DNA of 60,051 bases from Girardia tigrina (taxonomy: Eukaryota): the NCBI GenBank assembly GCA_001938485.1, contig MQRK01243963.1:1-60051 (forward strand). The letters run 5' to 3'. The translations under genes were made by a program, and so were the position numbers. How positions within the stretch are numbered: position 1 is the stretch's first letter; each line of letters opens with the position of its first letter. Below the pieces are notes generated by a model. That model saw only the letters and a list, made by a program, of their open reading frames with translations. It ran no database searches and was not told the origin of the DNA. This document shows, piece after piece, positions 1,986 to 37,310 of the stretch.

Positions 1986-2511
1986 CATTCTTGAAAAGAG
2001 TACATTTAATGGTTTACTCATTGATGTTTGTTAATACTCAAAATAAGATATAATCCCATTCAATGTCTTCAAAAGTTTTTTTTAAGAAAAAAATATTTTT
2101 ACATTTCTTTACACCTGATCTTCTTTAAAGTATATGAATCTTATTGCATCTTTTGGTAACAGTTTGTCAAGAAGATAACTCTCATGGTGTAATCTCTTGA
2201 AAATAGACAATAAAATATTTGGATAATAAAATAAATGGGCAAAAAAATTATCAATCAATCTGAATAATCAACACTAAATAAAAAAATTTTATTAGATAAT
2301 AATGGTTAATGTTTTAATGTTTTTAATTCGGTCCCTCCAAAGTCAACCGTTCTCCCGTCTCCGCCAGAAAAATTAACTTCTCCAAATAATAGATTTTCCC
2401 CATAACTTCTATTTGATTTTGCGGGATTATGTTTGCACTCTGCGTAGATTGTTCGGCCACCGTTGGTCTTGAGGTTTGAGTCCCGAACTCAAGGTGTTTT
2501 TTCCGATGAGT

Positions 2512-3860
2512 TTACGTACCAACACTTATTATTAAATCCTCTTTAATTCCTTCCGTCAGTGTTGCAATTAGATCCTCCTCCTCCAACAACTCTATTTCAG
2601 GATCCACCAACGGGTCTAAATTTACCTCCAATATCTTTACTTCTTCTTCGAGATTTCTTTTTCTTCTTTTCTCATCGATCACCATTCTACAGTCTAGCAC
2701 GGTTTTTCTTTTTTGGGTTTCCACTTCTATGGATTCCCAAATCTTATGATCAATATAATTCGGCTCGATTGCCTTATAAATATCCTTAATCGCGATGGCA
2801 TCTTCCAAAGCGTTATGATGACCAGGAATTTGAATGTTCCTATTTAGGATATTCTTTGCCAATATTTGTAATTTAAAAAATGCCTCCTTCTTTGGATTGC
2901 TGACCCATTTTATATAATGTTCTGGCCGCTGATAAATCCCTAATTCCTAGCAATCCCTTTTTATTTATGTTCAATGTTTTTAATTCTAGTTGGAGGTCAT
3001 TCACTACTAGAATTTTTCCAAAGCACAGTTTCTGGACCTCTTCAATGACCTCACATCCTCTGTTTTCTCATCATCGGCTCTGTAATGCCATGATACCTTT
3101 CTCCTGTGCATATAATTCTCTGCCTGGGCGTGGTTAATGTATTGATCAATTTTTCACCCTTAATATTTATAATTGCAATGGATACTAAACTTATTGTTTT
3201 ATCAATCTGTTTCGATGTAAATTCAGCATCCATAAATATTAAATTTTCTTGTATTTCTTTCTTCGATAAGGGTTTCCTTATAAAGCTTTTTTCTCTGACT
3301 AAAGTCCTCCTTTGTTGGCTCATACGATACATTCTCCAGTTTTTCTTTATGAACCCTGAGTTTTGGGTTATAATGTAGATTTTCTGGTTTTTTCCTATAC
3401 TCGATGGCCACTAATGCGGGAGCGTTGTAGGCGCGCACATAAAAATTTAATTATTCTTCCTTTAATTTCCAACTTGTGCGTCGCTCTAACACATTCAATT
3501 CGCTTTCAGTGACGCGAGATGTTATTGTCTAGTCAGCCAAAAATCTGTGGAGATTTTTTGAAATTTCCACCCTATAGGTAACAACATGAAGTTCTAATTC
3601 TCCTGATCATTCCTTTGGAAATATTTCACGTAGTCCTACGGGTTACTTATGCGTCAAAACTCTCAAATGCATTTCCACCTCCAAATCCAACACTCTAATG
3701 CCGTTTGGAAACGCTAAATTATCCGTGAGGGACCTATTTATTCCTATGTTTTCTCGGCCTAAAATTTTCGATAATTGAATATACACGGAATTTTCTCGAG
3801 CTATTCCTTATTCCAGGGTCACTTTGTGTGGATTTGATTGTTGTTGGTTTTGATTTTGAA
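2512..3860 (-). pseudogene. Retroelement-borne REX4/ISG20-like 3'-5' exonuclease with unknown N-terminal domain, copy 1 (frameshifted)
   Basis: ExoI FMDAEF, YHGIT, ExoII ILVVNDLQLEL, IRDL, ExoIII HNALED across frames; homologous to 13735-15350. Confidence 0.8.
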
Positions 3861-3958
3861 CTTCTACAAATAAAAAGATGTTGATTCAAAAAATTAAAAA
3901 ATAATGGCAAATTATGTTTATAAACAAAAACACGCCATTTGTTAAATTTATTTTTTAT

Positions 3959-5349: not shown

Positions 5350-6090
5350 TCATTATTATCTTACACTACCGTCATCAAGTTCATTCGGACTCCTTGAGGT
5401 TCGAATTGACACAAAGGACGTAGGTAATCCGCCTGACTCTTGATCCAATATAAGGTAATGATAAGAAAAATCGTCATTGATAATATGATCCTGCCAAACA
5501 CAAAATAAGCAGTTGAAACTGAGTCCCAATAAAAGGTTTTGAATCGAAAGGTGGTTTGGACCTGTTTTGTTTTATTATCTAAATTAATAAATGTATGATT
5601 AGATAATGAATAATTATAATCAATATTCTATATGATTTCATTGATATTTTCAGTTTTGATTTCTTGTTGCTCCACAAAAATAAGTGTCCATTCTGAGTCA
5701 CTTTTATCAAGAATATAATAATTGATTTTTATATAGTATTCCTCATCTTCTTCTAAGTTAGAAATGGTAATCTTGTTAGCATAATGATTGAGTTCAGCTG
5801 TTCTTGTTATTCCAATGAAGATACAATAGATTATAACTTTTTCATTTTCTTTTGAATTTCTTGAAAAATGTATATTATTGGCATTTATTTTAATTGTTAC
5901 TTTGTTTGTTTCGTTAATTATAGGGATTTCATATGTTTTTTTCATGTGTTGGCATCTAAATATTTCGAGAATAAGTTAAATTATTAAAAAGATAGGCTTC
6001 AAGATAAGTTATTGATATTATATAAGTGTTACCAATTAGTAAATCATCAATAATAACGAAGTGTTTTTGACTGGATAAGGTGACCGTAGA
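5350..6090 (-). pseudogene. FN3-like repeat membrane protein, copy 1
   Basis: HFVIIDDLLIGNTYIISITY and ITISNLEEDEEYYIKINY resemble FN3 L-x-x-x-x-x-Y strands; downstream hydrophobic IILSMTIFLIITLYW; homologous to 15580-16200. Confidence 0.5.
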
Positions 6091-6091
6091 G

Positions 6092-9006
6092 CAGTGGTTT
6101 CCAACCTGTGGGGCGCGCCCCCCAGGGGGGCATGCAGCTGTTTCCAAAATATTATTTTCAAATACAAACCGATAAATTCTAATAGGTGTCAAAAAATGAA
6201 TCAGCAGTATACATAATCCAAAATCCTCGCCGCGAATTTTTCGGGTACAAAGGCTAAAACATCCAATCCATATTCTTTTTGGAACGAAATATCTCGCTTT
6301 CGCNNNNNNNNNNNNNNNNNNNNNNNNNNNNGAATCAAAAGATAAGCACTCGCAACATCCCGGGTATTCTCGTGCTTACTCGCGCCAAACTTCAGTAAAC
6401 AGAAGCATCTGATTGTTTCTGTTTTCTATGAACAAAATTAGTTCGTTAGTAGAGCTTGCGATAACCACGTTGATATATAGAATGAAACGCTTCGCTTTGG
6501 TAACTTCTAAATAAATTAACATTGAGGTAAATTTCATAACTGTTATAATAGTACCAGGAAATGTTAATTTAATGTTGAGTTAGTTTTTCGGCATGAGAGC
6601 GAAGTAACAGGGTTATAAACATCCGAAACAATAAAATAACATTGTAATAAGAGGGCAAGTTATTTTTATGTTGTTTATATTCCAGTAATTAATTTTGACA
6701 AAAAAATAGTTTTTAATTCTACATTTNNNNNNNNNNNNNNNNNNNNNNNNNNNNNNNNNNNNNNNNNNNTATTGATATGATTGTATTGTATTTTAAATTA
6801 ATATAAAGTAATTGATTTAAATTTTAAAATAATACCATTTTTAGATGGATAAATATGTAACAGGCTTGAAAAGAAAATTAAATGAAGCAGAAGCAGTCGG
6901 CAAAAGAAAAGATGATGAAAATATCGGAAATACATCTTCGCAAAATAGTAAACCTAAACATAGAAAATATGATCCAATGTACTTATCATTAGAATTTACA
7001 TATAAGGTTTTTAATGGCCAAGAACAACCATTGTGTTTGCTGTGTATGAATACTTTGGCCTCAGACAGCATGAAACCAAATAAATTAAAACATCTTGAAA
7101 AAGTACATGCAGATCACGTTGGCAAGACAAGAGAATTTTTCCAAAGAAAATTAGAGAATTTAAATAAACAACAAGAAATGTTTTCAAAGACCACGTCTGT
7201 AACACAGAAAGCATTGCTTGCGTCATATAAAGTTTCTTATAGAATTGCTAAATGCAAAAAACCCCATTCAATAGGAGAAACTTTGGTGCTACCTGCAGCT
7301 ATTGACATGATAGAAACAATGCTCGGTGAATCATATGCTGATCAACCTAAAATCATTCCACTTGCAGATAATACGGTGGGAAGACGAATATCCGATATAT
7401 CTGAAGATCTTTGCGATCAATTAATAGAAAAAGTAAAACTATATTCTTTCGCGTTGCAAGTAGATGAGGCTACCGATGTTCTTAAGGATGCACACTTGAT
7501 AACATATGTCATATAGATATGTTGTGGAAACTGATGTTAGAGAAGACATGTTATTCTGTAAACCTATTGAATGCAATACTACAGCAAGGGAAGTTTTTAA
7601 AATCATTGATAATTTTTTTAATGAAAATGTCATTCTGTGGGTGAACTGTGTTGGACTATGCACAGATGGAGCTCCATCTATGGCAGGAAAAAATGCTGGT
7701 CTACAGACACTAGTTCGAAAGGTGTCCCCTCGCGCAGTTTGGACGCATTGCATGATTCATAGTCAATCACTTTTTTCAAGAGATATGTGTGAAGATCTAC
7801 TATCAGTATTTGAAGTTATTACAAGAGTTTTAAATTTTATCAAAAATAGCCCATTACGAGGAAGGCTTTTCGCAAAATTGTGTGATGACATGGGTTCAGA
7901 ATATAGATCACTTCTATAATATTGTGAGGCACGTTGGCTTTCTCGTGCCAAAGTACTTCAAAGGGTGTTTAAGCTAAAAGAAGAGATCGTCATATTTCTT
8001 AGTGATAATAATAGAGATGAAGCACACTTGTTTTATGACACGAAATTCCTTGTAAAATTTGCGTATTTAGTTGATATTTTTCAAAGACTCAGTATTTTAA
8101 ATAAATCAATGCAAGGGGCTCAAATTCATGCTTTTATGCAGAAAGACAAGATTACTGCATTTATGAAAAAATTGGAACTCTGGATAATAAAATTGAAAGA
8201 TAATAACTTTGACATGTTTACCACTTTTAAAATTACCTGTCCTGCTGATGAAATGGAAGAAAGTAAAGTTTTTATTAATAATCATTTGACCAGTCTATGG
8301 AAGCAATTCTCGTTGTACTTTAAAGATCNNNNNNNNNNNNNNNNNNNNNNNNNNNNNNNNNNNNNNNNNNNNNNNNNNNNNNNNNNNNNNNNNNNNNNNN
8401 NNNNNNNNNNNNNNNNNNNNNNNNNNNNNNNNNNNNNNNNNNNNNNNNNNNNNNNNNNNNNNNNNNNNNNNNNNNNNNNNNNNNNNNNNNNNNNNNNNNN
8501 NNNNNNNNNNNNNNNNNNNNNNNNNNNNNNNNNNNNNNNNNNNNNNNNNNNNNNNNNATCTTACCTATGTGAAACTGGTTTTTCTACAGTAGCTGTCTTA
8601 AAAACAAAGTATCGATCTCGCTTAATAATTGAAAAGGAACTGAGAACCGCGATTTCTTCAATGATACCACGATTTGAGAACATTTGTGCTGAAAAACAAG
8701 CTCAACTGTCGCATTAAATTTTTATGTTGTAGTTAGTAATTATTGTAGTAGTATTAATTATATATTCTTTTTTTGTTTGTTATTATATCTCTTATAATAA
8801 ATATATTATGTTTTTACATAATATTGTATATTATTTTGTAGCCCATTAAATAAATTATAATATCAGTTGAGTATTTATGAAATTTGATTTTTATATAAAT
8901 TAACGGTTAATAATTAATGGGACGCAACAATTTGTTTTTTAAAGGGGGACGCAACAAATTATTTTTTAAAAAGGGGGCGCCGGTACAAAAAGGTTGGAAA
9001 CCATAG
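6092..9006 (+). mobile_element. hAT (Buster/Charlie, ZBED5/SCAND3-like) transposon with disrupted transposase ~6845-8717
   Basis: TIRs cagtggtttccaacct / aggttggaaacca; PLCLLC..SMKPNKLKH, LQVDEATD, CTDGAPSM, HCMIH, CEARWLS, SYLCETGFS. Confidence 0.95.
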
Positions 9007-10390
9007 CATTAAACTCATATAATCCTTTGCCATCTGTAAATGTAGATTTCATTTTATGTGCTTCTTTTATTCCAAATTGTCAATATCCACAATGTAAATC
9101 AATTGTCGTAAAGATTTCAGAATTTCCCATTTTATCATACATTGTATTGATTAATGGTAAAGGATAAGTGTCTTTTCTCTTCACTGTATTTAATTTTCTA
9201 TAATCTACACAAAATCTTTGTGATCCATCTTTCTTTTTCACCAGCACTATAGGTGATGTCAATGGTGAGAAACTGGGTCGAATAATATCAAACTTTAACA
9301 TTCCTTTAATTTGTTTTTGAGCTTCATCCTGTAACGCATATGGGATTCTATAAGGTCTTTGCTTGATCGGAATTTCCTCCAACAATGGTATTTCATATTC
9401 CATAATATGCGTTCTTCCAAAATCATATTCGTGTTTTGCGAATACTTTATCATATTTTCTAAGTAATGCTGTGAATCTAGCTCTCTGAATTTCCGTTAAA
9501 TTTGGACTTGTTACTACTGGTGGATCATATCTTTTTATACCTGGAGGAATACTTTTTGGAATTTTTACTTCATGTACTAAAGATACAGTTCTAATTCTCG
9601 TTTGTTGTTGTATGATTTTCGGTTTTACATCAAAATTGGCAAACCTGACTGGTATCGATTTTTGTGAGACTGATACTATTTCGCTACACATTTGAATATC
9701 ATATTTCTTCATAAACTCCTCATTTGGTTGAAAAAGTAGATCTCCTTTGATGTGACTGACTACATCTGCATGATATACTAATTCTGCTTGATAAGGAATT
9801 TCTAAATTTTTGCTGATAAACACATCAGATACTCTATGTAAGATTTTTCTATCAGGTATAGATAACAAATTTCCGCTTTTTAAATCCAGAGAAACTCCTA
9901 ACTGTTGCAAAACATCCATACCAAGCAATAATGATTCTGGGCAACTTTTTGAAATTAATACATTTGTTGTAATAGTCTTACCACCAATTTTTATTGACAC
10001 TTCTACAGTTCCTTCAATAGCTAGATAATGACCTGTAACTGATTGTAATCTTTCAATACAAGGTGCCAGATTTAATTTTTCAGATGCCAGAAGCATCTTT
10101 TCATCAACAATTGTGACTGCTGAACCAGTGTCAACTAAAGCTGTAATATATCTATCATTTAATAAAACAGTTATTGTTAATCTTTTGCCGAATTTAGTTC
10201 TCACAGCAAAAACATAATTACTTGGTAAACCCCATTGATTTCTTATTTCAACTTCTCTTTTTTGTTTTTCCTCTGAATTTACAGTTTCAAGATTTGGATC
10301 GACATGTTTCATTTCCTTAAGTTGTAGGAATGGATAATTCGGTAATGGTTCAAAACTCGACGGATTGAATGGTGCACCTGAATTTAACAT
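9007..10390 (-). pseudogene. Ty3/gypsy pol fragment: aspartic protease + N-terminal RT
   Basis: ALVDTGSAVT, LLGMDVL; PIKQRPYRIP, SPIVLVKKKDGSQRFCVDYRKLN, IDLHCGY*Q, YEFNAM cut at the hAT end. Confidence 0.95.
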
Positions 10391-10920
10391 TCATTTGTAG
10401 TTGATTCTCGTAATCTTTCCACTAGCTTTTAGATATTGTTGATGCCGTTAAATTGCTATTACTTACAGTTTCATTTCCAATTTCACTTTTTCTTCCATCA
10501 CTTGTTACACTTGGAACTATCTGAGACAGATTCAAATTGTACTTTTTTATTTCCTTTTTTAAACTTTTTTCGACGTTTATAAATTTTCATTTCTGATTTT
10601 AATGTATTTATTTCTTTATGATGATGGTGAATTATAAAAAATTTCGCTATCATAGGAATTGTTGGGTATTCGAAAATATTTTTGTTAACCACTTTAAGCA
10701 AGCTTTCGAATATAATTATCTGACTCCTTTTCAAACGGTTCTTCCAACTTTGTATTTAGTTTATCAATTGATTAACCCTCTCTTGAGGTTACAATTAAAA
10801 ATGAATCTCATCGGAGATTAGTTTTCAAATATTAACAATAGTAATAAGTCAAAGGAATTCTTTTCAAAAACTTTATTCAATTGAATCACAAAATTCTTCC
10901 GAATAATACAACGTATAAAT

Positions 10921-10944
10921 AACAATGGAGGATTCCAGAATATT
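10921..10944 (-). promoter_or_regulatory. Putative non-tRNA primer-binding site
   Basis: Directly after the LTR end and before gag/pol on the minus strand; complementary to the minus-strand transcript of 15419-15443. Confidence 0.5.
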
Positions 10945-10945
10945 T

Positions 10946-13604
10946 TGTAAAATCTTCTATAAAAAATATAACTATTATATTTAAAATTTCATTTACAAAT
11001 TTTTTATGTTTTTGGGTATTTATACCCGTTTGATAATAAAAAAATTATTAAATTTAAATTAGTTTGATTTAAAATATAACTTTGAAAAAACATTAATTTA
11101 AAAATTTAAAACATTAATTTAAAATTTAAATTAGTTTTTAATATTAAACCCAAATTTCCCTTTTAAAAAAATTTAAAACTTTAAAAAAATTTGCATAAAT
11201 TTGTTTTATCGGGCTTAATTACCCATTTATTTAAATGCTCAATTTATTTAGTGACAAGAAACTAATCCCAACGTAATTGCTGGTTGATTAGTTTTTAGAT
11301 CCAATAAAAATAGTGGGCATAATTGCCCATTTCATTTTATGCTGGATANNNNNNNNNNNNNNNNNNNNNNNNNNNNNNNNNNNNNNNNNNNNNNNNNNNN
11401 NNNNNNNNNNNNNNNNNNNNNNNNNNNNNNNNNNNNNNNNNNNNNNNNNNNNNNNNNNNNNNNNNNNNNNNNNNNNNNNNNNNNNNNNNNNNNNNNNNNN
11501 NNNNNNNNNNNNNNNNNNNNNNNNNNNNNNNNNNNNNNNNNNNNNNNNNNNNNNNNNNNNNNNNNNNNNNNNNNNNNNNNNNNNNNNNNNNNNNNNNNNN
11601 NNNNNNNNNNNNNNNNNNNNNNNNNNNNNAGAGTTTCAATTTTGATACCAATCTTTTAAACCGAATGTTCACATTACTATTAGTTTTTTTCAAAATTGAT
11701 ACCTGTTTTTTTTCTAAATAAATATGTAAAATAAATATTGTGATTTTTTTAGCTATTTTTTCCTTCATCTAGACCCTCAAGCAAACACACTAATATTAAA
11801 AATAAATCACTTTCGTAAATCAGGCTACTAATGGTTAATATAATAATAATAATGATAAAAATAATAGTAATAAAAGAATAGTAAAATAATAAAATACTAA
11901 TAATATTAATAATTATAATAATATAACAATAATAGCAAAAATAATAAATAATAATAATAGTAAGATAATATAATAACAATAAAATAATAAAAATAAAATA
12001 ATAATAATGTTAATATAATAATAATAATAAAATAATAATAAATAATAATCATTTTTTTTCAAAACCTTCAACGGCTTTTCCCAACCAACACAGGCGTGCT
12101 CCCTTAATGAACGGGCCCCTGCTAGGGAGGAAAAACTCGTTGACAGAATTTAATAATAAATTAATAATAATTGTTTTTTATAAAAATATAATAATGACGA
12201 AATAATAATAATAATATTAATAAATTGACAATATTCAAAATAATAACAATAAGTCTAATAAAAATATAATAATGATAGTAATAATTATGAAATAAATAAT
12301 AATAATAATATTATAATAATAATAATTAAATAGTTATAATTTTAATATAATAAATAATAATACTAAAATAATATTATTAATATTGGTAATATTACTTATA
12401 CAGATACAAATTATCCCTATTAACTACCTGGAGTCCCTGAGCACTGAGCTNNNNNNNNNNNNNNNNNNNNNNNNNNNNNNNNNNNNNNNNNNNNNNNNNN
12501 NNNNNNNNNNNNNNNNNNNNNNNNNNNNNNNNNNNNNNNNNNNNNNNNNNNNNNNNNNNNNNNNNNNNNNNNNNNNNNNNNNNNNNNNNNNNNNNNNNNN
12601 NNNNNNNNNNNNNNNNNNNNNNNNNNNNNNNNNNNNNNNNNNNNNNNNNNNNNNNNNNNNNNNNNNNNNNNNNNNNNNNNNNNNNNNNNNNNNNNNNNNN
12701 NNNNNNNNNNNNNNNNNNNNNNNNNNNNNNNNNNNNNNNNNNNNNNNNNNNNNNNNNNNNNNNNNNNNNNNNNNNNNNNNNNNNNNNNNNNNNNNNNNNN
12801 NNNNNNNNNNNNNNNNNNNNNNNNNNNNNNNNNNNNNNNNNNNNNNNNNNNNNNNNNNNNNNNNNNNNNNNNNNNNNNNNNNNNNNNNNNNNNNNNNNNN
12901 NNNNNNNNNNNNNNNNNNNNNNNNNNNNNNNNNNNNNNNNNNNNNNNNNNNNNNNNNNNNNNNNNNNNNNNNNNNNNNNNNNNNNNNNNNNNNNNNNNNN
13001 NNNNNNNNNNNNNNNNNNNNNNNNNNNNNNNNNNNNNNNNNNNNNNNNNNNNNNNNNNNNNNNNNNNNNNNNNNNNNNNNNNNNNNNNNNNNNNNNNNNN
13101 NNNNNNNNNNNNNNNNNNNNNNNNNNNNNNNNNNNNNNNNNNNNNNNNNNNNNNNNNNNNNNNNNNNNNNNNNNNNNNNNNNNNNNNNNNNNNNNNNNNN
13201 NNNNNNNNNNNNNNNNNNNNNNNNNNNNNNNNNNNNNNNNNNNNNNNNNNNNNNNNNNNNNNNNNNNNNNNNNNNNNNNNNNNNNNNNNNNNNNNNNNNN
13301 NNNNNNNNNNNNNNNNNNNNNNNNNNNNNNNNNNNNNNNNNNNNNNNNNNNNNNNNNNNNNNNNNNNNNNNNNNNNNNNNNNNNNNNNNNNNNNNNNNNN
13401 NNNNNNNNNNNNNNNNNNNNNNNNNNNNNNNNNNNNNNNNNNNNNNNNNNACATTAATTTACGAAAACATAAAATTTACTTTATTTTAGAATCCTTTATA
13501 TAGCGAAATTCTAAATTTATTGAAATATAAAATTAACTTATTTAAATCTAATCTTAACGAAACCGAACATTAATAATATATATTTTTTTTTCAGATCCTT
13601 GACA
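10946..13604 (-). repeat. Long AT-rich LTR, copy 1 (contains gaps)
   Basis: Minus strand starts TGTCAAGGATCT and ends AGATTTTACA; PPT upstream; direct repeat of 17572-19072. Confidence 0.8.
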
Positions 13605-13615
13605 TATCTTCCCTT
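13605..13615 (-). promoter_or_regulatory. Polypurine tract
   Basis: Minus strand AAGGGAAGATA immediately before the TGT of the LTR. Confidence 0.7.
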
Positions 13616-13734: not shown

Positions 13735-15350
13735 TCATATCTTCCAATTCAAGACGTGTCCATTTTCCGATACGTATTGAATTTCGGAGACGGACGCCCT
13801 GAAAGTTTCTCCGTGGACCTGCAATTCCGGTAAGATATTGTTTCTTGGTTCAGGTGGAATATCGCAATGTTCTAAATTTTGTATTGTTAGATTTTTATTT
13901 ATTGACTTTGGTGGAATCTCGAAATGTTCCATATTCTGGATTATCAATTTAGTTTTTACTTTATTTGATTTTCTATTTCGTTCAGGATTTTCTGGATAAT
14001 TTGAGGTTGATGGCATCAATGCATTGAACGTTGATTGACACGTCACCGGTTGAAGCGCGTCATCCCCAATGTCTTGCGGAATCACAAGATTTTCGCAAAC
14101 ATCCAAATCAACTTCATTCTGCCATGCCATGATCAAATTCTCATTTGGCTCTCTTTGAATTAATGGTGATTGACACAAGATTGCTGGTACTCCAGACTTG
14201 AATTTCTTCGGTTGAGAATGTTCAACATCTCCAACGATGGCTGGAATTTTCCATCGCAAATCTTCGTGATTAAAATGAATGTTGTCAATATAAGAATCTT
14301 CAATTGTTCGATATAGATTCATAATTGCTTTTGTATCCTCAAATGAATTATTTTGTCCTGGTTGTTGGATTTTTATCTTCAAGATTGAAGCCGCCAAAGT
14401 TTGGAGTTTATAGAATTGTGCACCGCCTTTTGGAGAAAGATTGAATTTTTCTTGAAATGTTTTTTGCACCAGCCAGATCACGAATGCCCAACAGAGATTG
14501 TTTGTCAATGCAGAGGTTGTTCAGCTCCATTTGGAGATCGTGACCAACCAAGATTTTACCACGGCATAAAGATCGAATTTTTTTTAATGCCTCATATTCG
14601 TCCATTCGATTTCGCAAGTGGATTTCTTTCAACCCATGAACCTGATCTGCCAACTTTATTATTCGATGTCTCGGAGTAATTAAGGTATCCAGAACGGTTT
14701 TCCCATAACCGTTTAGAATTGAAATTGACAATGGAGCCTTGGATCCATCTGCCATTTGGCAAGCGAATTCTCCATCCATAAAGAGAAGGTAATCATTTAT
14801 TTTGTCCATATCGCTTCGTTTTCTTATAAAACTTTTTCTTTGCTTGTAGTCTTCTTCGAATGGATGGTATTGTAATCCTTCTAGACTCCCGCTATCTTTC
14901 CAGCGCATTGGATTGTAATGTTTTTGGGGATATTTTCTTAATTCAATTGCTATAATTACATGTTCAGTTACTGCTCGAATGCACAGTTCCATATCCTTTG
15001 GTGTGATCTCCCAGGATGTGAATTTGGATATTTTGTTGGATAAAAGTCTGTCCTTTCCAAAAATGAGAATTGTTTCTGAAATAACGTGCAATTCAATCGT
15101 CCCGTCATTCATTCCAGTACATAATTCCTTGATTGTTTTTTGTTGTTGAAGTTGATAATTTTCCCAGATATATCTCCATCTCTAGATCGGTGGTTCGAAG
15201 AATATTGGGTATGACGAGGTTGTTGGAGTAGCAGCGATGAGATTTTCCAGATTTGCTGAGAAGACTTCCAAATTCTTCGTAAACCTCCTGACGTTTTGGC
15301 TGAATGTTGCGGAGAAGAGGTGGTGTCATTTGGTTAGATTGTTTTTTATT
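13735..15350 (-). pseudogene. REX4/ISG20-like exonuclease with N-terminal unknown domain and low-complexity C-terminal tail, copy 2
   Basis: ORFs 15105-15329, 14408-15112 and 13735-14508 join by frameshifts: FMDGEF, VHGL, ILVGHDLQMEL, IRDL, NNSFED. Confidence 0.85.
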
Positions 15351-15579
15351 GATCTGAAATAATATTAAAATATTAAACTAGCACAACATAATTTTAAAAT
15401 ATTATTTATATATTAATTAATAATTTGGGATCCTCCAATTGTTTTACAGTAAAATAAAAATAAAGATTACAAGGTTTAACAGATAAATAAAGTTAATAAG
15501 GATGAACACAATATAAAGCATAATTGTTTAAATCAAAATTATGTCAAAATGTAACTGTACAAACATGCAATTTACTCAC

Positions 15580-16200
15580 AATTATACAAAGTTGACCGTT
15601 CTCCAGAGTATCCACTTGAAAGAGGTTCTTGGTTCCTGGATCGGTTTCTCTTTTTAAGGATCACCAGACATTGTATAATAGACATTGTTAATAGAGCAAT
15701 GATGATGAAAAATAATATGATTAAAACAAAATAATAGTTATAATCAAAATTAAGAATTGTATTGTTTATAGTTTTTGATCTTTGAACGATTTGTCCTCTG
15801 ATTTTCTGATTGTAAGGAATCTAATATTCGATTCATTTCTGAAGGTTTGATTATCCTTTAAAACAACTTTGGGGTTTTAATAATTTGTTCCTCCACGAAG
15901 GTAGTTATCCATTTATTTCTAGTGATATCTTTACGAAAGTATGAAAATTTTACAAAGGTTTCTTCGTCTTGAAGATTTAACATTTCACCATTTGATTTGA
16001 AATAATTTAATATAACCCTTTGATGTAAGGTTATTAAGGTATTTATAATGATAACTTGTTCATTTTTATTTGATTTTCTATAGAAATATATCTTGTCTGA
16101 AGTTACATTGATAATTACTGAATTGGGTTCGATTTCCAATTTTACAATTCGAGTTTCAGTATAAAAAAAGTATTCATTTATTATAGTTATAACTCAAATT
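15580..16200 (-). pseudogene. FN3-like membrane protein, copy 2 (3' part)
   Basis: SVIINVTSDKIYFYRKSNKNEQVII...NLQDEETFVKFSY aligns with copy 1; TM segment YFVLIILFFIIIALLTMSIIQCLVIL followed by KKRNR. Confidence 0.5.
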
Positions 16201-16209
16201 ATCAAGCAA

Positions 16210-17280
16210 TTGAGCTTCAAAATATATTAAATTTAAAATGTAATTTTGTCCCATTGTAAGTTCATCGATTTAGTCGTCTGTCGGGATCGTCTAACACCGG
16301 TTTAGGTCTTCTGGTGGAGGAGCACGTCAATTTGGCTGCGCGCGTGTAACGAGGACCGGGTTGCAAGGATCGTGAGCGTGTCGACAATGTTGACGACGAA
16401 CTCCAGTGACCGGTACTCGTCGAGCAGACTGAGCAGACAGTGGTGCGTCTCTTCGATCGTGTCGGACTCATGGTGGAAGCATCGCGCCGGTTTGATCGAC
16501 TCGATCTTCAGTACGGGTCGCTCCTCGAACATCGTCGGGCGAATCGGCTTGGGCATCTCTGTGACGACAAGAATGATGATAATGAGGCGATTATCGATCG
16601 AGGCGAGGAACATCGTCCAACTGGTGAATATCAACAATGATCGCGAGCGATTGTTCCAGTTATCACAGATTATTAACTGCTGGAGTCATCGGAAATATAA
16701 TTTGTCGTGGCAATTAATTTGTGATGACATAACAAATTATTATGAACCAGAGAGTTCCGCGAAATGTGGGAGCATAAAATCGGTTGTCGATTCGCAATGG
16801 TGAATTGAGAATTTTCAAATTTGTTATAAATCAAAGACATCACTCGATTGTCGATTTTAAAATTGGAAAAAAATTTATTTTCAAAAAATAATGGCATTCC
16901 ATACAATGTTTACAAATTCAAATAAATCCATAAATTAATTGATTACATTAGATTTGTAAAACTAATTCGAATTTCTATTAGTATTGTTTTTTTTATTTGT
17001 ATTTTTAGTAATTTTAATTTGATAATTAATATCAAATATTTTTTTACTAATTTTATCATTAAAATAGCAAAAACACATGAATCATCGTTTGGATGTCTTT
17101 TCTTGAATTAATCAAATAACTGCTTGAAATTTGGCGAGGTCTTCAAAAAAAATGAGAGAACATTGTCACGTTTTACATCATGTATCTTGGTCGAAAAATT
17201 GAAATTATAAATAAGAAATATAGGATTTTTTATATATATTTAATATTTATAAATATTGATTAAAATTTTGTGTCACTACA
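16210..17280 (-). other. Insertion carrying a GC-rich ORF fragment (16302-16637) of unknown function
   Basis: Sharp rise in GC/CpG; strong G/C third-position bias in the minus frame; splits the FN3-like ORF. Confidence 0.45.
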
Positions 17281-17484
17281 ATCGATAATAAGAAAGGGTT
17301 TTGAATTTAACAATATTCTAGAGACTGATCGTGAACCTCTTGAATATTGAATTAGAACTTTTTCGAGTTTCTTTAGTTTGCTGATTATAATGATTTTTGA
17401 CCAAGAAGGTTCTATTGTAAGCAAAGTATAGGCATCTTTAGTCCAAATTTGCATGAACATTATAAATTGAGGTTCCAAACCCAA
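17280..17484 (-). pseudogene. FN3-like membrane protein, copy 2 (5' part)
   Basis: SKPFLIID aligns with QKHFVIID of copy 1. Confidence 0.4.
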
Positions 17485-17571
17485 AACTATTATATTTATT
17501 AAATATAATATAAATTATATAATAAAAATTAATATAATATAAATTATAAAATAAACTATTATATATTAAAT

Positions 17572-19072
17572 ATATAACTATTATATTTAAAATTTCATTT
17601 ACAATTTTTTTGTGAAAAAAATCTTTATGTTTTTGGGTATTTATACCCGTTTGATAATAAAAAAATATTAAATTTAAATTAGTTTGATTTAAAATTTAAC
17701 TTTGAAAAAACATTAATTTAAAATTTAAATTAGTTTTTCATATTAAACCCAAATTTCTCTTTTAAAAAAAATTTAAAACTTTAATAAAATTTGCATAAAT
17801 TTGTTTTATCGGGCTTAATTGTCCATTTATTTAAATGCTCAATTTATTTGGTGACAAGAAACTAATCCCAGCGTAATTGCTGGTTGATTAGTTTTTAGAT
17901 CCAATAAAAATAGTGGGCATAATTGCCCATTTCATTTTATGCTGGATAATATTTTTAGGTGAGAATTTTATTTATTTATTTTATTTTTTTATATTTTTTT
18001 TATAATTTTAATAATAATAATATTAACAATAATAATAATATAATACTAATTATAATAATAAAATAATAATAAAAATAATATAATAATAATAAATTGATAN
18101 NNNNNNNNNNNNNNNNNNNNNNNNNNNNNNNNNNNNNNNNNNNNNNNNNNNNNNNNNNNNNNNNNNNNNNNNNNNNNNNNNNNNNNNNNNNNNNNNNNNN
18201 NNNNNNNNNNNNNNNNNNNNNNNNNNNNNNNNNNNNNNNNNNCCTAGAGTTTCAATTTGGATACCAATCTTTTAAACCGAATGTTCACATTACTATAAGT
18301 TTTTTTCTCAAAATTGATACCTGTTTTTTTTCTAAATAAATATGTAAAATAAATATTGTGATTTTTTTAGCTATTTTTCCCTTCATCTAGACCCTCAAGT
18401 AAACACACTCATATTAAAAATAAATCACTTTCGTAAATCAGGTTACTAAGGGTTAATATAATAATAATAATGATAAAAATAATAATACAATAAAATAATA
18501 ATAATAAATTAATGATAAACATAAAATATAATAATAATAATAAAATAATAATAGATAATAATCATTTTTTTCAAAGCCTTCAACGGCTTTTCCTAACCAA
18601 CACAGGCGTGACCCCTTAATGAACGGGCTCCTGCTAGGGAGGAAAAACTCGTTGACAGAATTTAATAATAAAATAATAATAATTGTTTTTGATAAAAATA
18701 AAATAATAATGACGAAATAATAATAATAATATTAATAAATTGACAATATTCAAAATAATCAAAATAATAACAATAAATCCAATAATAATAATTAAAGTTA
18801 TAATTTTAATATAATAAATAATAATACTAAAATAATATTATTAATATTGGTAATATTACTTATACAGATACAAATTATCCCTATTAACTACCTGGAGTCC
18901 CTGAGCACTGAGCTCAAACAAAAGGGAAGTTACAAAGGGATTTATCACCACATTTTATTTTATTTTTTTGTTATTTATATATATTTTTAATTTAATTTTA
19001 TCTTTTAGGAGGGTAAGAATTATATTTTTAAATTTTAATTAATAATATATATATTTTTTCAGATCCTTAACG
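17572..19072 (-). repeat. Long AT-rich LTR, copy 2 (3' end lost), abutting the env-like gene
   Basis: Direct repeat of 10966-12450 plus 13570-13604; starts (C)GTTAAGGATCT; no PPT upstream. Confidence 0.8.
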
Positions 19073-19870
19073 GAATATATCCAATTATTAATTTCCATGA
19101 ATATCCCAAAATTGTATATAATCTATATGTTGATAAAATTTGAGAAATTACAACTTTGGATATCGTAAAAATTTACATATATTTCGATTAAACCAGCACA
19201 AGCTTGACCAAAAAATATAAATTTTCCCCATATTCTTTTCATCCTATTCATAGTGGCTCTTTGATAATGATCTGTACTCACAAAATTATCGTAGTATACT
19301 TTTCCTACTCTATAAGGTAAAACGGTATCAATGATTTCATTCATAATTCTTTCTTTTTTAGAGGGAAATAAGAAATTTCGTCTTGAATCTTCAATTTCTT
19401 ATGGTGAATAAATACCAATTGTTGACATTTGATCTAAAGACGTAAAATTTATTAAATATTCTAATTTTGTTAAATCCAATTTTTCGATGCCTTTAACTTC
19501 TTTATTATTTGGTAACGAAATCCACATTTCTGGTGTTAAGCGATATAAGGGTGATGTTATCTCATTGCATCGTAATTTTCTGGGTCTTGTTCCATTTACC
19601 ACCAGAATTCGTGTTATAGGTTCTACGAATCTTAGTTCGCCTTTATAACTAACTGGAAGTTCATTTGTACACTCAATATGTTTTATTATTTGAAATGATA
19701 TTTCTTTACATTTATAACTATACAATGCTTCACCCATAATTCGTCCAAATACACCTTTTTCAGCGACTAATATTGGAGCGACTAGATTAGGATATTGGAA
19801 AGAAATGGGTACTGAAACGAAAATAATTGAATTAAAAAATATCTTTATCTCTTGTTTTAATAATTCACTT
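19073..19870 (-). pseudogene. env-like glycoprotein resembling chuvirus-type (class III) fusion proteins, C-terminal part
   Basis: GEALYSYKC..CTNELPV..FVEPITRILV..C..PLY..W; membrane-proximal FGQACAGLI..LYTILGYSWKL across a frameshift. Confidence 0.75.
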
Positions 19871-21214
19871 GGTGTAAAAATTATCATCGTGTTTACTTTT
19901 TTTTTCTCGTGTTTATCTGAGTGGAATGTACAAGTTATTTTGTGAGAAGATTTATATAAAAATGAAAATGTTGAATCGAGTTTATTCTTCATTTATTGTG
20001 GAGCCGAACACAAAGTGGATATATTTTGATTACAATCTCAGTATTTTGTTGTGGAGTATCGAGTGTGAACCCCCCAAGGAAGTGTTGCTGACCAAGTTGG
20101 ATAGGCAAGATGGCGCCTCCTGTTCATATTCCGAACGCCATCACTCAGCGGTAATCTTTATATTCAACTTATGATTTCTCTTTCCATTCCGTCACAAGGG
20201 ATCCCAGCGATATGTGGACGAAGGTATACAGACCAACTCATCAGCGTAATCTCACACATATCAACACGGTGTGACTATGCGTCAAAGCCCTATAAACTCG
20301 CTTCGATTATATTAACAGATATCTTCGTGGTGATTAGACGTCACCACAAGGTTTATCAAAGTGTTTATCACAAAATGATTAATGATTTTTTTGGAAACAG
20401 ATATAAACGAGTGAGAAGGCCAAGAAAAGTCGAATAGTAGGGTTTCTTCAAATTACATGAATTTTGATCCAAGAAGCGCAATGTGAAACTCAGAATGACG
20501 GGAAAAACCATAAATATAAATAAAAAAGTAATTCATCATATTCTGATATATGATTTTGGCAAAACAAAAGTATGTGATATATTTGTGTTCTACACACACC
20601 TGCCAAAGGATATGAATTGATCAGAGTGCAAATATTCCATAGAGTTCATACAAGCAACAAATAACAGTAAAACATTCTTAAACCTTCCCTCCCTTGTAAT
20701 GTGTACTTAGTTCAATACTAACTACTGTACTTTGCTTCAATATAATAAATATGATGTTTTAGATTTTAGATATTCCTCAGACATATATTTGTGTGTTTAA
20801 TTAAAAAAATAATACTTTTCATAATTATAGTTTCTTAGATTCATGAAGGATGATTTCTGAAAAGTATATGTTATAGTATACAAAAAGTATACATGTTATA
20901 ATATTATTAGAGTATTTCATATTATTAATTTTTTGATTTTTTAAAATTTCTTTAATGATTTTTTCATGTTTTCAGCAATTATACAAAAATTATTAAGATT
21001 TTTAACTTTATTTATAAACAACTGAATATTTATAACAATTCAGTTAAATGAATCATGATAATTTTTATTTTTTCAATCTTAATATGCTAATTAAAAATGT
21101 GTTGTCACTACACAACCCCGGAACACACGGAAGTTTTTTTCACTGTAAAGGAAAGGTTAAATTGATTTTTAATGTTGAATGTTCATGGCGTGGAAGTGGC
21201 GATGAGCCTGCTAC

Positions 21215-24179: not shown

Positions 24180-26791
24180 TAGAGGGTCATTCCCGGGAAA
24201 ATATTTTGTATATTCCCGGAAATCGGGATTTTTGAGCGATATTAAAAAATTATTATTTATTATGTATATTATTTATACTATATTTATAATATATATTATT
24301 TTTAAATTCTTTAATATTTAAAGTTTAATGTTTAAAGTTCTATTTCTAATTATTATTATCAAAAACCTCTTAAAATACATCACAATTTTTAGTACTTTTC
24401 GATATTTTCATTTTTAATTTATTATTCAAATTATAATTGAAAGGGAATTTTGTTTAAATTTATATATAGTGTGAATATTAGCTATCTAGGTATTTCAAGT
24501 AAGTCCAAAATAAATATCAATATTTTATACATTTTTTATTTGACTTTTACTTTTGGTTATACAAATTTAAGAACCCCCATGGCATAAGTTTGGAAATATT
24601 TTTTGAAAATAGAAAATGAAAAAAGGCAAAGTGTTCAAAATGCCCAAATAAACTTTTTAGTTGTAAAGGAGCATCTACTACTGGATTCATTAGACATTTA
24701 GCTTCAAATCATAACATTATATGCAAAAACACTACAATCACGGATGAATATGAAGCTAGTTCCTCGAAAAAATCAAAATATTCACATTCGGAACCATCAT
24801 TATTATCTTTTGTGAAAATACAATCTCTAGCTAAAATAGTTGCGAGGCGCGCAGTGCTAGATGGCTTTTCTATACATGGAACCTGCAAAAGTCAATTCAT
24901 CAGTGCCAAACAGTTTTCTTTGTATAAAGATAAACATAATGTCATGCAACTTGTACACTCTTTTTATGATTAAGCAAAAGTAAAAACTATTCAAGAGATA
25001 AAAACTTTTCAAAAGATATATTCGAAATATAGTTTAATGCTAGATGAGTGGACCAGTTTAAACAATCACCGATATTTAAATGTCAATCTTCATTCCATCA
25101 ATGGTAATTATTTTATTTTGTGGCTTATTAGAATTTTGGGAAACTGTCCAGCAGAAATTGTACAAGAATTGATGGCAAAAAATTAAATGAATTTGAGTTA
25201 AATGCCTCAAATGATATTGTAGCATCGACTACTGATGGAGAATCTGTAATGAAAAAATTTGGTCGTCTAATTTCATTTCACCATCAGCAATGCTATATTC
25301 ACGGAATTCATCTTGCTGTTGTTCAAACTCTGTATAAAAAATATTTTTTGAATTAGCAAATGAAGAAAATAGAAATGAAAGTGAAAATAATTCAGAAAAT
25401 GACTAGGACAGTTCGCTAGATATAAATTTTGGCCATGAAAATCAAACAATAACACCGAGACCGGATATTGCAGCTTATTTAAACAGGGTTCAAAAGATTA
25501 TAAAACTTTTAAAATTGTCTCCAGTAAAAAATGCTATTTTGCAAAATTATATTCGAATGGAACACAACAAAGAATTACCATTGCTTTTGGATTGTAGAAC
25601 AAGGTGGAATAGTATAGGACGTATGCTTGATCGATTTTTGACTAGATATAATTCAGTTGTATTGGCATTAACAGATTTAAATTATTAGAATTATCGCGTT
25701 GATGATATTTTACTACAACTTCGTAAATTGTCAGCCACTTTAAAACCCATAAATTTGGCGGTGGAAAAGCTGGGTCAAAGAAAAGCGAATTTTTTAACTG
25801 CTGATGCAATTTTAAAATTTCTTTTTGCTGAATTGAAAGAAATATATACTGAATTATCCAAAGAGTTTTTATCAGTAATAGCAGCAAAAATGTCTGAGAG
25901 AAGAAATAGACTTGGTATCTTTAATGAAATATCTACAAAATAAGGTTATTGAAAGTAGACCTGAATTACCCATCTCAACCAATATAAGAATAACAACATT
26001 TTGTAAGGAGTTAATGAATACAATATTTACTCAAACTGAACCTGAGACTGAGAGTGAAGCTGTGAATATTCTTGAACTTGAAGAAAGCCCTAAAATACAC
26101 TAATTTAAATGAAAAGTTAGCTGTTGCGATACATCACATATCCTTAAAAGCAAATAAAACAGCAGTCATTAAAAAACTTGATTTTAATTCTATAGTAAAA
26201 AATGGGATTTCTATTTACGAGAGCATGAATTTCTTATCAGAAAACTTATCAAAGCTATTGGATATTTTAATATTCAACCTCTCATATTTTAATATTCAAC
26301 CCTCATCAATTGAAAGCGAGCGCGTTTTTTTCAAGCTCTTCAACTTTTTGTACAAAAAAGAGAGATGGTTTAACAGACAAATCCTTAAATGTTCCGTGCT
26401 TTTTAAAAAGCTTTTTCTTAAAACAAAATAAAATGTAGCTACGAATGCGATGTATTTCTTTAGTTAGTTTTTTATTAAAAAGGATTTTTTGACTATTGTT
26501 AATCAATAAAGTTTATTTTATTTTCGTTATGGATTATTTTACGTTCTGGTATATACATTTTTTCATTATAATTATAAACTAAATATGTATGTGTGAAATG
26601 AAATAAAGTATTATTTTACTTATAAGCTTGTTTTTAGTAAATTTTTTTTCAAATAAATCTAATGAAGACATATAACATAACTTTTTGGCAACTTTTAGAA
26701 AATATCCCGGGATCCCGGGAATTCCCAGGATTTAATGTTTAATATTCCCGAAACCCGGGATTGAAAAAACAGCCTGGAAAATGACTATCCA
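24180..26791 (+). mobile_element. hAT transposon (BED finger), decayed, inserted in a Tc1 remnant
   Basis: Imperfect TIRs tagagggtcatt / aatgactatcca; near-TSD tgcacaat/tgtacaaa; subterminal cccggg repeats; BED W.YF..C..C..HL, LDEWTS, TTDG, DCRTRWNS, SSIESERVF. Confidence 0.9.
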
Positions 26792-28463: not shown

Positions 28464-29711
28464 TTAGGTTGGGGAAAAAGTAATCCATTATTTTAATCCA
28501 TTATTTTAATTCATTATTTATCGATCAAGCAATTTCAAATTTATGCTCTTTGTCAAGGTAACATTTCACAAAATTTTTTTTGCTTTTTTTATTCAGTTCT
28601 GAGTTACAGGGTGTTGAAAATGGAAGTCAACAAAGAAAAAATTCGGTACATTTTACAGTTTTATTCGATAAAGGCGAAAATGCAAGCCAGGCGGCTGTTA
28701 TTGTGAATGGTGTTTATGGTGCCAATACTGTAACAGCTAATTACATGCAATTTTGGTTTCGTCGATTCCGTGGAGGCATTTTTGATGTTAAAGATGCACC
28801 TCACACAGGCAGGCCTATCACTGAAAATGTCGATAAAATCTCGGCAATGATCGAAGTTGACCGGCATGTTAGTAGTCGTAGCATCGCACAGGAGCTGAAT
28901 ATCGACCACAAAACGGTTTTAAACCATTTGGGCAAAGCAGGATTCAAAAAGAAACTTGATGTTTGGGTTCCACACCAATTAACACCAAAAAACATGATGG
29001 ATCGAATTTCCATCTGCGAAGCCTTGGCCAAACGAAATGAAATCGACCCATTTCTTAAACGGATGGTTACTGTGGATGAGAAATGGGTCACATACGACAG
29101 TATTGTACGAAAACGATCGTGGTCAAAGCACCTCAAACGGTCGCCAAACCAGGACTAACGGCCAGGAAGGCTCTACTGTGTATTTGGTGGGACTGGAAAG
29201 GAATCATTTATTATGAGTTGCTTCCGTATGACCAAACACTAAATTCAGATCTGTACTGTCAACAACTTGACCGTTTAAAGATAGCAATTGATGTGAAACG
29301 ACCAGAATTGGCCAACAGAAGAGGTGTTGTGTTCCATCACGACAACGCCAGACCACATATGTCTGTAGTGACTCACCAGAAACTCCGGGAGCTTGTTTGT
29401 TAAGTTTTAATGCATGCAACATATAGTCCGGACCTGGCACCAAGCGATTACCACCTTTTTCTCGCATTGCAAAATTTCCTGAGTGATAAGAAATTGGGAT
29501 CAATAGAAGATTGTGAAAATCGATTACTACAGTTTTTCTCCAATAAGAACCAAGGCTTCTACGAGAGAGACATTATGAATCTACCTTCAAAATGGCAACT
29601 AATTATACAACAAAACGGTGCATATTTGACTCCAAGAGGACAATCCGAAACATGTTAAATAAAGTTTTGAATTTCACGCCAAAATAATGGATTTCTTTTT
29701 CCCCAAACTAA
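28464..29711 (+). mobile_element. Full-length mariner (DD34D), transposase 28620-~29640 disrupted
   Basis: TIRs ttaggttggggaaaaag / ctttttccccaaactaa, TA TSD; MEVNKEKIRYIL, WVPHQL, TVDEKW, HHDNARPH, YSPDLAPSDY. Confidence 0.97.
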
Positions 29712-34599: not shown

Positions 34600-35800
34600 T
34601 CCGAGGTTTTTGATTGACTCAATGATGGCTTCAAAGCGCATGTTAACACATCATGGTGGAACAAAACTCAGCATGCCATACATGATCTTAAAAATTCAAT
34701 AAAACATTTATTAACTTTAAGTACTCTAACCCGGGGGTAATTTTAACTGTTAAACAACATATTCAAAATGGGGGACATAATTTTATTACTGATGAAATTT
34801 TTAGGGTTAAGGATAAGGATAAACTATCAGAAACCATTAGGAAATGTATTGGGTACTCGTGGGTTCTCAAATGGGATGAACAAAATAGTTCTGGTCGTTA
34901 CTCTGAATGTCTGTCAAATTCCCCATCTCCACCTCCCCTATTTATTATGGTAGCCTTAGTCAGAGCGAGTAGAGATTCATTCACCAGGCTCGGTCGTACA
35001 CAGTTCATGTGCGTTCTAGACCTAGGTGTTTGGTAAGTATTTCATGTAAGCGTGGTTGTCTTGTCGAAGAAACCCTGGTCCATGTGCTGGTGGGCTGTAA
35101 CTCTATAAGTAATTTCTGGAAAGCCCGACACGATTCAATTCAGGACATCATAGCCAAGGAACTGTCTACCTTCACGGATGCAGAGATTTATGTCAACGAA
35201 GAATGTGTCTTCATTAGTTCTGCCCAAAGAGTGGACCTTCAAATCAGTTTTCATAAAAAGCGTAAAATCTTCCTTGTAGACGTTAAGTGCCCATATGAGA
35301 CTGAGAAAAATATATATAATGCAGATAGGAAAAATATAGATAAATACTGGGACTTAAGGAAACGAATACAACATACATACGGGTACTCATGGAAAGTTGA
35401 ACTGGACACATTCATTGTTGGGCCATTGAGATCATGGTTACCCAACAATGAACGTATTCTTAATGATTTATTTCTATGAACAAGGAAAGTACCAATTGTC
35501 CGTGCCTGTGTACTCTCCAATATCAAATGGTAGGCTCTACAGTGGAAGGACTTTAAGGACCCGCGAGCAAACCTACAGGAGATCCAATGCCCGCTACTTG
35601 CCCACAACCCTGCGGACTTTGACGACGGAAAATTGCACACTGAGGGAGACATATTTGAGCATGATGTGCCGTTGGATGTCCCTCTTTAGGATAAATTGTA
35701 CTGCAAGATTGTTTGGGATTTTATGAGAGAGAGTTCAACCTTAGTGTTGACAGCATGTATGATTGTCTGACTTTTTCGACGCCATATAAAGGTTAATATA
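34600..35800 (+). mobile_element. 3' fragment of an early-branching non-LTR retrotransposon with REL endonuclease (NeSL/Utopia/R5-like)
   Basis: CKRGC..ETLVHVLVGC (CCHC), RHDSI, RVDL..LVDVKCPYE, K..KY, IVGPLRSW. Confidence 0.85.
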
Positions 35801-36159: not shown

Positions 36160-37310
36160 ACATTATCCAAATGAAAAACCCGTCACCTCGACAACATCGA
36201 CATATTTTATATTTATCACAATTTGATTTTGCAGTTTCACATCTTCCCGGCAAGCAAAATGTTGTTGCTGATTTTTTATCCAGAAATCCAGTTTCAGCAA
36301 TATCACTTCTCCCAGATTCAGCTCTCGAGTTGCTTCAGTCTGAAAATCTTTCCAAAGAAGAGCTCGCTGATTTCCCAAATCATTATACCGACACTCATGG
36401 TATAACTTATGATTCTGTGGATCTCGGTGTCTGAAGAATCATCGTTCTTACCGGTTTACGCAGTCACATCTTCGAAACATTCCACAAATTGCACCATCTG
36501 GGTCGAAAAGCAAAATTCGAACTGATTCATACTCGTTTTGTCTGGTCAAACATCAGACGTGATATCAAGACATGGTTCCAAGAATGTACCGATTGCCAAA
36601 AACAGAAAGTAACGCGGCATATTAAACCACCAGTTATCAGATTTCCAACAGGTAATCGTTTTCAGATTGTACATCTAGACATTGTCGGTCCATTACCGCC
36701 TTCAAATGGATGCTCTTATATTTAAACAATGATCGATCGGAAAACAAGATGGCCTGAAGCAGTTCCAATCTCTTCAATTTCTACTGAAAATGTTGCTAGA
36801 CATTTTGTCAACACTTGGATTGCTCGGTATGGTGTACCTTCTCAAGTTATCACGGATCAAGGTCGGCAATTCGAAAGTAATTTATTTCAGGCTCTTACAA
36901 AACGTCTTGGATTCAAACACGTCCATACAACTTCGTATCACCCCCAATCAAACGGTCTTGTCGAGCGTTTTCATCGAACCTTAAAGACTTCTCTACTTTG
37001 TTTAAATACCTCTTTAAACTGGCATGATTCTCTTCCACTCGTGTTATTAGGTTGACGAAATACTTTTCATTCATCTACAGGGACTTCTCCTAGTGTTATG
37101 TCATTCGGAGCTGGAACAGCTTTCCCTGATGAGCTTTTTAGAGAAACGATTAATACTGATCTCGAAGCTTTACATGCCGCCAGAAAACACTTCCTCTCCT
37201 CTGATACAAACCCATCTTTTGGCAACTCTGTCCAGAAATTAACTCATCTGCCAAGTTCAGTGCTCTCAGCCAAGTATGTCTGAGAACTCCACCCCGAACT
37301 CCGTTCTTCT
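36160..37310 (+). pseudogene. Ty3/gypsy RNase H end + integrase
   Basis: PGKQNVVADFLSR; HHCC; VHLDIVGP, ITDQGRQF, NGLVERFHRTLK. Confidence 0.93.

Follow-up and report, generated by a model that had tools for sequence, protein, structure and literature searches.

Based on the analysis of 60,051 nucleotides of Girardia tigrina DNA (contig MQRK01243963.1; this whole stretch is called the window below), we found that an exonuclease gene is, very probably, the last open reading frame (ORF) of a Burro-like LTR retroelement of the gypsy type, where it follows pol and precedes the polypurine tract and 3' LTR. With similarly high confidence, the product of this last gene is predicted from fold models to be an ISG20/REX4-derived exonuclease fused to a jelly-roll or double-stranded beta-helix (DSBH) domain. 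As its function, we tentatively put forward that it may be an accessory nuclease directed against small-RNA silencing, with the non-catalytic DSBH domain aiming it. The DEED motif that first drew attention to the gene is in itself ordinary, and it is the fusion, the pairs of dead and active versions and the loss of the residue equivalent to Arg53 of ISG20 that are worth experiment.

Position of the gene in the retroelement

Direct repeats were found in the window at positions 10948-12450 and 17552-18914. An internal duplication was ruled out as their origin by the target-site duplication, the polypurine tract and the TG...CA ends, and because of these same features the repeats are identified as the LTRs of an element, called element A (Table 1). 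The polypurine tract and the LTR begin about 120 nt past the exonuclease stop codon. Element A has lost gag, env and most of pol by internal deletion, and it is inserted in the env region of another element, which is the source of the fusion-protein fragments, of the protease and reverse transcriptase, and of a second exonuclease copy (copy B), the latter being assigned by its position.

Table 1. Features of the retroelements and of the exonuclease copies in the window.
Feature	Position	Strand	Remarks
Target-site duplication, first copy	10656..10659	.	4 bp
3' LTR, element A	10660..13604	-	TG...CA ends; two N runs inside
Polypurine tract	13605..13615	-	Immediately precedes the 3' LTR; also seen in 4 further copies
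Exonuclease accessory ORF, copy A	13735..15329	-	ATG at 15329, stop 13735-13737
Copy A C-terminal tail	13738..14289	-	Low model confidence; fastest evolving part
Copy A ISG20/REX4-like DEDDh-fold nuclease	14290..14789	-	Ala at ISG20 Arg53 position
Copy A ExoIII	14329-14352	-	
Copy A ExoII	14522-14545	-	GHDLQMEL, Glu
Copy A ExoI	14765-14788	-	
Copy A linker	14790..14924	-	About 45 aa, YNP and RxSFIR motifs; boundaries approximate
Copy A motif Y.P..ED..QRKSFIRK	14819-14869	-	
Copy A motif AIE...HYNP	14909-14950	-	
Copy A N-terminal domain	14925..15329	-	About 135 aa; predicted DSBH fold without iron triad; approximate boundary; based on models of a natural open sister copy, fold searches and motif tests
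Copy A motif TSW	15011-15019	-	
Copy A motif ELHV	15083-15094	-	
Copy A motif NLVIPN...DLEMEIYL	15165-15221	-	
Remnant of Pol C-terminal extension	15575..17514	-	Beta-rich region and transmembrane segment (by eye), interrupted by insert; in frame with integrase in L093
5' LTR, element A	17552..19072	-	Shortened by internal deletion
Target-site duplication, other copy	19073..19076	.	4 bp
Exonuclease ORF copy B, second subfamily	2329..3885	-	More decayed; protein about 35% identical to copy A; Gly at Arg53 position
Copy B ExoII	2981-3004	-	VNDLQLEL, Glu
Pol C-terminal remnant upstream of copy B	5364..6081	-	
Protease and start of reverse transcriptase	9083..10390	-	Element into which element A inserted
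Fusion glycoprotein fragments (Pfam Monjiviricetes_fusion)	19126..19992	-	env of the interrupted element; E 3.6e-19, 7.6e-09

Where 800 nt or more was available (39 loci), the C terminus of Pol was found upstream of the exonuclease, on the same strand, in 26. In better-preserved copies (L093, L096) the order is a ubiquitin-like domain, a fusion glycoprotein (Monjiviricetes_fusion), protease, reverse transcriptase, RNase H, integrase with a membrane-type tail in frame, and the exonuclease ORF. When L093 (1536-3335) was read together with window positions 15575-17514, the integrase continued in frame into a hydrophobic segment and a beta-rich region; Pol of other copies ends in a terminal transmembrane helix, and a membrane protein without Pfam match is thus coded at the end of Pol. 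A third subfamily of this genome had no pol within about 7 kb upstream in three of three contigs, so that the 3'-terminal position may not be universal. On the opposite strand near one exonuclease copy of this third subfamily (L132, 3658-4878), an ORF joins an Hsp90 fragment to ubiquitin.

The exonuclease ORF is a large repeat family with thousands of candidate copies in the AT-rich genome of 1.43 Gb: searches started from the window copies gave 2556 first-look candidates with copy A and 2047 with copy B, of which 148 and 150, respectively, were scored, and these counts are not copy numbers. When 19 starts were scanned for a conserved splice acceptor within 90 nt, 3 gave a match, and no acceptor was common to the subfamilies of this genome. 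Contigs from four runs guessed to be RNA align to the gene, mostly with 85-99% identity, and this is evidence neither of transcription nor of copy A itself.

An intact element was present on a metagenome contig (L110, 3-11517), with an open Pol of 2368 amino acids and a second protease-like domain. After Pol, a dead exonuclease homologue is followed by one with the canonical Asp and then by a ubiquitin-like ORF, and the last two of these ORFs start close behind TTTTAG. As reviewed for Burro (PMC6431247), the elements described here carry a ubiquitin-like domain and then a mononegavirus-like fusion protein before protease, reverse transcriptase, RNase H and integrase, and occur in thousands of copies; L110 also has the ankyrin repeats after the integrase. 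This likeness is one of domain content and order, and on architecture alone it would make a triclad flatworm the likely host. Unlike Burro, the window family has a membrane-type Pol tail. Of the Burro accessory domains (ankyrin, BIR, BCL2, MATH or Smc), ankyrin is present in L110, and ankyrins were not seen in the deleted copies examined in this genome. The accessible text of the review names no exonuclease for Burro, and the exonuclease mentioned there concerns Terminons.

State of the window copies

Copies A and B are both broken, and neither makes the proposed protein. The reading frame of copy A has two frameshifts, near 15140 and at 14430-14460, and the copy lacks the ExoIII histidine. 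All folding and searching was therefore done with natural open-frame sister copies (510-530 aa) instead of the broken window copies. In these the layout is a folded N-terminal domain of about 135 aa, a linker of about 45 aa, the nuclease, and a tail of about 160 aa with low model confidence. The N-terminal motifs that the initial annotation quoted as common to both copies were all located, with QRKSFIRK of copy B split across a frameshift.

Within the Pol remnant upstream of copy A, an insert at 16270-17280 is flanked by a 6-bp duplication, and a GC-rich piece of it matches Integrator subunit 7 (Pfam INTS7_N, E 2.5e-11); this could be part of a host gene transported by another element. Other decayed elements lie at 6845-8717, 24620-26428, 28562-29655, 34973-35476 and 36435-37280 of the window, and comprise two hAT-like, a mariner-like and a non-LTR endonuclease-like element (named by eye) and a separate integrase.

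Nuclease domain

The AF2 model of a natural open copy was confident over residues 1-352. The best fold match of the nuclease was ISG20 (1wlj; Z 18.5, rmsd 2.6, 165 residues aligned), and further matches included Pan2 (Z 15.0), SDN1 (Z 14.0) and coronavirus nsp14 (Z 9.4, rank 40). Arenavirus NP, by contrast with these, was not among the 50 fold matches listed. The domain has the RNase H-like DnaQ fold of the DEDDh superfamily (Pfam RNase_T, E 1.1e-08) together with its motifs, that is D-x-E in ExoI, an acidic residue in ExoII and H-x4-D in ExoIII. In 24 copies from this genome the catalytic positions D186, E188, E269, H326 and D331 are invariant or at least 90% conserved. ISG20, ISG20L2 and REX4 (REXO4) share the fold, the ExoI-III layout and the GHD motif, and gave the best PDB sequence matches (E 1.3e-08, 3.4e-07).

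Relatives were collected by a profile search of 1.84 billion representatives, of which the best 150 were listed. From a set of 154 proteins, 20 were dropped as short or without the domain, leaving 134, namely 62 members of the element family and 72 REX4-like proteins. A tree was built with care from 60 rows whose motifs are intact, excluding dead and fragmentary rows and including the ExoII column (outgroup sampling small); in it the 49 family rows were split from 11 REX4-like rows, host exon included, with support of 100/100. The host REXO4 exon, which belongs to an intron-containing gene whereas the element-borne exonuclease is intronless, grouped with the cellular rows. The family was not nested inside the REX4/ISG20 cellular clade and does not carry the cellular signature of Asp in ExoII plus Arg at the ISG20-53 position. 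It thus differs from ISG20 and REX4 as a separate clade in which ExoII has Asp, Glu or neither, Arg53 is lost, the Ser57 position is mostly His and a DSBH domain is fused.

For the nuclease the dN/dS ratio was 0.07-0.19, and the N-terminal domain gave 0.09-0.3, in the 4 unsaturated of 11 pairs, all from copies chosen for open frames; the other 7 pairs were saturated or nearly so at silent sites. As judged from these sequence comparisons, the N-terminal domain is under purifying selection, and it is retained in catalytically dead paralogues. No other part of the protein is as well conserved as the nuclease domain. An IMG/VR scan gave 103 pattern matches, none of them confirmed, and the best scores in the ESM Atlas (0.78 and 0.77) stayed below lead level.

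As ISG20, the closest solved structure, is a broad antiviral RNase, and a part in antiviral defence has been suggested for accessory domains of retrotransposons (PMC6338049), the exonuclease could also act in general RNA decay against host or competing viral transcripts, by shut-off or superinfection exclusion. We regard this as very unlikely, since nothing here points to host or viral transcripts as targets and an untargeted activity would strike the RNA of the element too.

Glutamate and aspartate in ExoII

The reported Glu in ExoII of both copies was confirmed (GHDLQMEL in A, VNDLQLEL in B), and it aligns without gaps to Asp94 of ISG20 (GHDLKHDF). The other Asp of GHD was ruled out as the ExoII ligand because ISG20 also has Asp there, which is the substrate-binding D90. 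Among 66 readable motifs from 90 loci of this genome, picked by similarity to the window copies and thus biased to their subfamilies, 60 had Glu (33 GAA, 27 GAG), none had Asp and 6 had another residue; such a proportion, encoded by both codons, indicates that Glu is not there by chance.

Beyond these subfamilies the picture is mixed. The third subfamily has 3 Glu and 3 Asp in 6 copies, and the 62 family members have Glu in 24, Asp in 21 and a degenerate motif in 17, with at least five Asp/Glu changes in the family tree; 70 of the 72 REX4-like proteins have Asp. The call of a DEED-type variant therefore holds for the window copies, but not as the mark of a special enzyme, since 21 of the 62 relatives with the same N-terminal domain have Asp, and this switching rules out DEED as a family marker. 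The MERS-CoV nsp14 mutant E191D has activity near wild-type, the site alternates between Glu and Asp among nidoviruses (PMC7654266), and a change from DEDD to DEED is also reported for rotifer LTR elements (PMC5408684). On the strength of the switching in the family, the nidovirus alternation and the rotifer case, DEED is real and recurrent, and probably a near-neutral swap rather than a functional signature.

The suggested link to nsp14 did not hold: its Z score is about half that of ISG20, and descent from nsp14 was rejected, as the fold match is distant and DEED is unstable in the family. The likeness to nidovirus ExoN at motif II, where Glu alternates with Asp (PMC7654266) and part of the element family is DEEDh, is convergent. 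Unlike nsp14, the element protein has no conserved Cys/His clusters (zinc fingers) and no methyltransferase match, its tail being of low confidence. Proofreading of a large genome, as by nsp14 in coronaviruses, would suit the size of Burro-type elements, which exceed 30 kb (PMC6431247), as well as the shared DEED motif. It is nevertheless the least likely of the roles considered and most improbable, given the structural distance of nsp14, the unstable motif, the lack of a link to reverse transcriptase and the existence of dead lineages. Moreover, host transcription also mutates retroelements, beyond the reach of a proofreader of cDNA.

N-terminal domain

Where the initial annotation had described an unrecognised N-terminal domain of about 170 aa, this length is made up of a fold of about 135 aa and the 45-aa linker, and the fold is now predicted. 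It is not a host REXO domain: its profile scored at most 1.2 bits on the retrieved REX4-like proteins and had no match in the host REXO4 loci, covering about 1.5 kb around the host exons. Pfam gave no consistent family in 56 members and no AlkB or cupin match. Folded alone (53 sequences), the domain reached a pLDDT of 88. Fold matches were ALKBH6 (Z 9.4, rmsd 4.3, 137 residues aligned), Ofd2 (9.1), a prolyl hydroxylase (P4H, 8.9), OsALKBH1 (8.8) and a cupin (8.7); these Z values are modest and tied, with about 130 residues aligned to the oxygenases and about 95 to the cupins. The matches listed by VIA-align and by Foldseek against the PDB were cupin, AlkB, hydroxylase or similar DSBH proteins, and the same classes appeared among viral models. 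The domain, a DSBH core with an N-terminal helix and strands, is thus predicted to be AlkB/prolyl-hydroxylase/cupin-like at the level of fold only.

Both His elements of the HxD/E...H iron triad were found in 3 of 53 rows with loose windows, and in no shared column; the 2-oxoglutarate arginines (RxxxxxR) were found in 0 of 53. The motifs of metal cupins (three His and one Glu) were likewise missing, there being one conserved His column and one Glu/Asp column. A profile of the domain gave a probability of 0.1 against 5 host AlkB exon pieces, a very thin template. The conserved columns (n = 53) are Pro42 (50), Asn43 (45), His82 (49), Ser/Thr106 (50) and Glu/Asp130 (50). It was observed that Arg, His, Ser/Thr and Glu/Asp in columns 52, 82, 106 and 130 (L029 numbering) lie on strands expected to be adjacent in the DSBH sheet. 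The Ser-His-Glu combination may recall a catalytic triad. A giant gypsy element of orchids also has a DSBH fold of the 2-oxoglutarate oxygenase type, but this AlkB domain is an m6A demethylase that has retained HxD/E-H and RxxxxxR (PMC9289625), whereas the domain described here has neither motif and is fused to a nuclease.

The N-terminal domains of vaccinia C16, a protein that blocks DNA sensing, were among the fold matches (Z 7.4). The protein could accordingly be mainly a binding protein, in which the DSBH and the nuclease fold tie up RNA or a factor of the host and catalysis is secondary, as with the degenerate oxygenase folds of poxvirus proteins. A clade of 15 rows with dead nuclease retains the N-terminal domain with His82, Ser106 and Glu130, and dead and intact copies adjoin in L110. 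We nonetheless consider this reading unlikely, since 45 of the 62 members have an acidic ExoII, most of them with all catalytic positions, in what is the best conserved domain.

Loss of Arg53 and the proposed role

The change that we find more telling than DEED concerns Arg53 of ISG20. As placed by ungapped sequence alignment rather than by residue pairs from superposition, Arg occupies this position in 69 of the 72 REX4-like proteins and in the host gene, and in 5 of the 62 family members; it was found in 1 of the 45 members with acidic ExoII and in 0 of 24 copies from this genome. The ISG20 mutant R53A degrades RNA with a 3'-terminal 2'-O-methyl group, which the wild type cannot (PMC10085690). 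The Met14 position is taken in the family by the bulkier Phe, which might restore the clash, and the Asp90 position, the second stop in ISG20, is retained in 43 of the 62 members. Considered from the sequence, the loss of Arg53 would fit tolerance of DNA equally well.

In fly and mouse, the 3' ends of piRNAs are 2'-O-methylated by Hen1 (PMC12138184), and in planarians the PIWI/piRNA pathway silences BURRO elements (PMC8532177). Of the roles suggested initially, defence against small RNAs has thus gained a specific lead in the loss of Arg53. Under our proposal of an accessory nuclease against small-RNA silencing, versions with intact motifs would act as two-metal 3'-5' nucleases on single-stranded nucleic acid, and versions without Arg53 would no longer be halted by a terminal 2'-O-methyl group. 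Aiming would fall to the non-catalytic DSBH domain through its binding of a partner, either protein or RNA. For dead paralogues binding would be the whole of their action, and the element would benefit from the degradation of host small RNAs, including 2'-O-methylated piRNAs. Against an anti-piRNA reading, the 3' ends of piRNAs bound in Argonaute are normally shielded, and 17 of the 62 members have lost ExoII, so that some lineages can do without catalysis. A stronger version seems to us rather unlikely: giant animal retroelements would have captured a REXO4/ISG20 nuclease that then lost the arginine of the methyl stop and gained, by fusion, a repurposed AlkB-like domain as its reader, the enzyme would destroy mature piRNAs, and the dead paralogues would be adaptors or decoys.

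It is also possible, if somewhat doubtful, that the nuclease serves replication by trimming the RNA or cDNA ends of the element, or by removing single-stranded leftovers of reverse transcription before they alert the cell, in the manner of TREX1 but with an ISG20-like enzyme. ISG20 acts on both ssRNA and ssDNA (PMC9157404), loss of Arg53 on the side of the 2'-OH could broaden the substrate to DNA, and the same role was proposed for the exonucleases of rotifer retroelements (PMC5408684). The exonuclease is, however, a separate ORF outside Pol, and no longer fused form was found among 4755 candidates in a weak search. Most gypsy elements replicate without such a nuclease, and dead lineages persist here.

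Comparison with known systems

An action on small RNAs is known from the same nuclease subgroup, as Arabidopsis SDN1 degrades small RNAs according to the title of its entry (PDB 5z9x), and the alignment with SDN1 reaches into the linker. SDN1 differs in being a host enzyme without a DSBH match, and it has other accessory domains. Some nematode Cer elements also have an exonuclease-like accessory ORF. That LTR elements can carry exonucleases is already known (PMC5408684; PMC6338049). Those of bdelloid rotifer LTR elements and Terminons are similar in that a captured 3'-5' exonuclease forms an extra ORF after pol, with DEED variants; these ORF3 proteins are RNase D-like DEDDy enzymes for which the accessible text reports no DSBH, whereas the present ones are ISG20-like and DEDDh (PMC5408684). 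In a full-text literature search, judged by titles and the openings of abstracts, no ISG20-type nuclease with a DSBH domain was found in such elements; Repbase and the original Burro paper with its supplements lay outside this search and may annotate the ORF.

To our knowledge, much effort has gone into finding transposon-encoded suppressors of the piRNA pathway, and few have been traced to a particular enzyme. The family described here is a candidate piRNA suppressor with a prediction at the level of a single residue, which could be tested on methylated versus unmethylated RNA. Versions with Asp, with Glu and with a dead nuclease offer natural comparisons, two of them adjoining in one element. 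Even if the substrate is a different one, a fusion of DEDDh nuclease and DSBH domain would be added to what giant planarian-type retroelements are known to encode.
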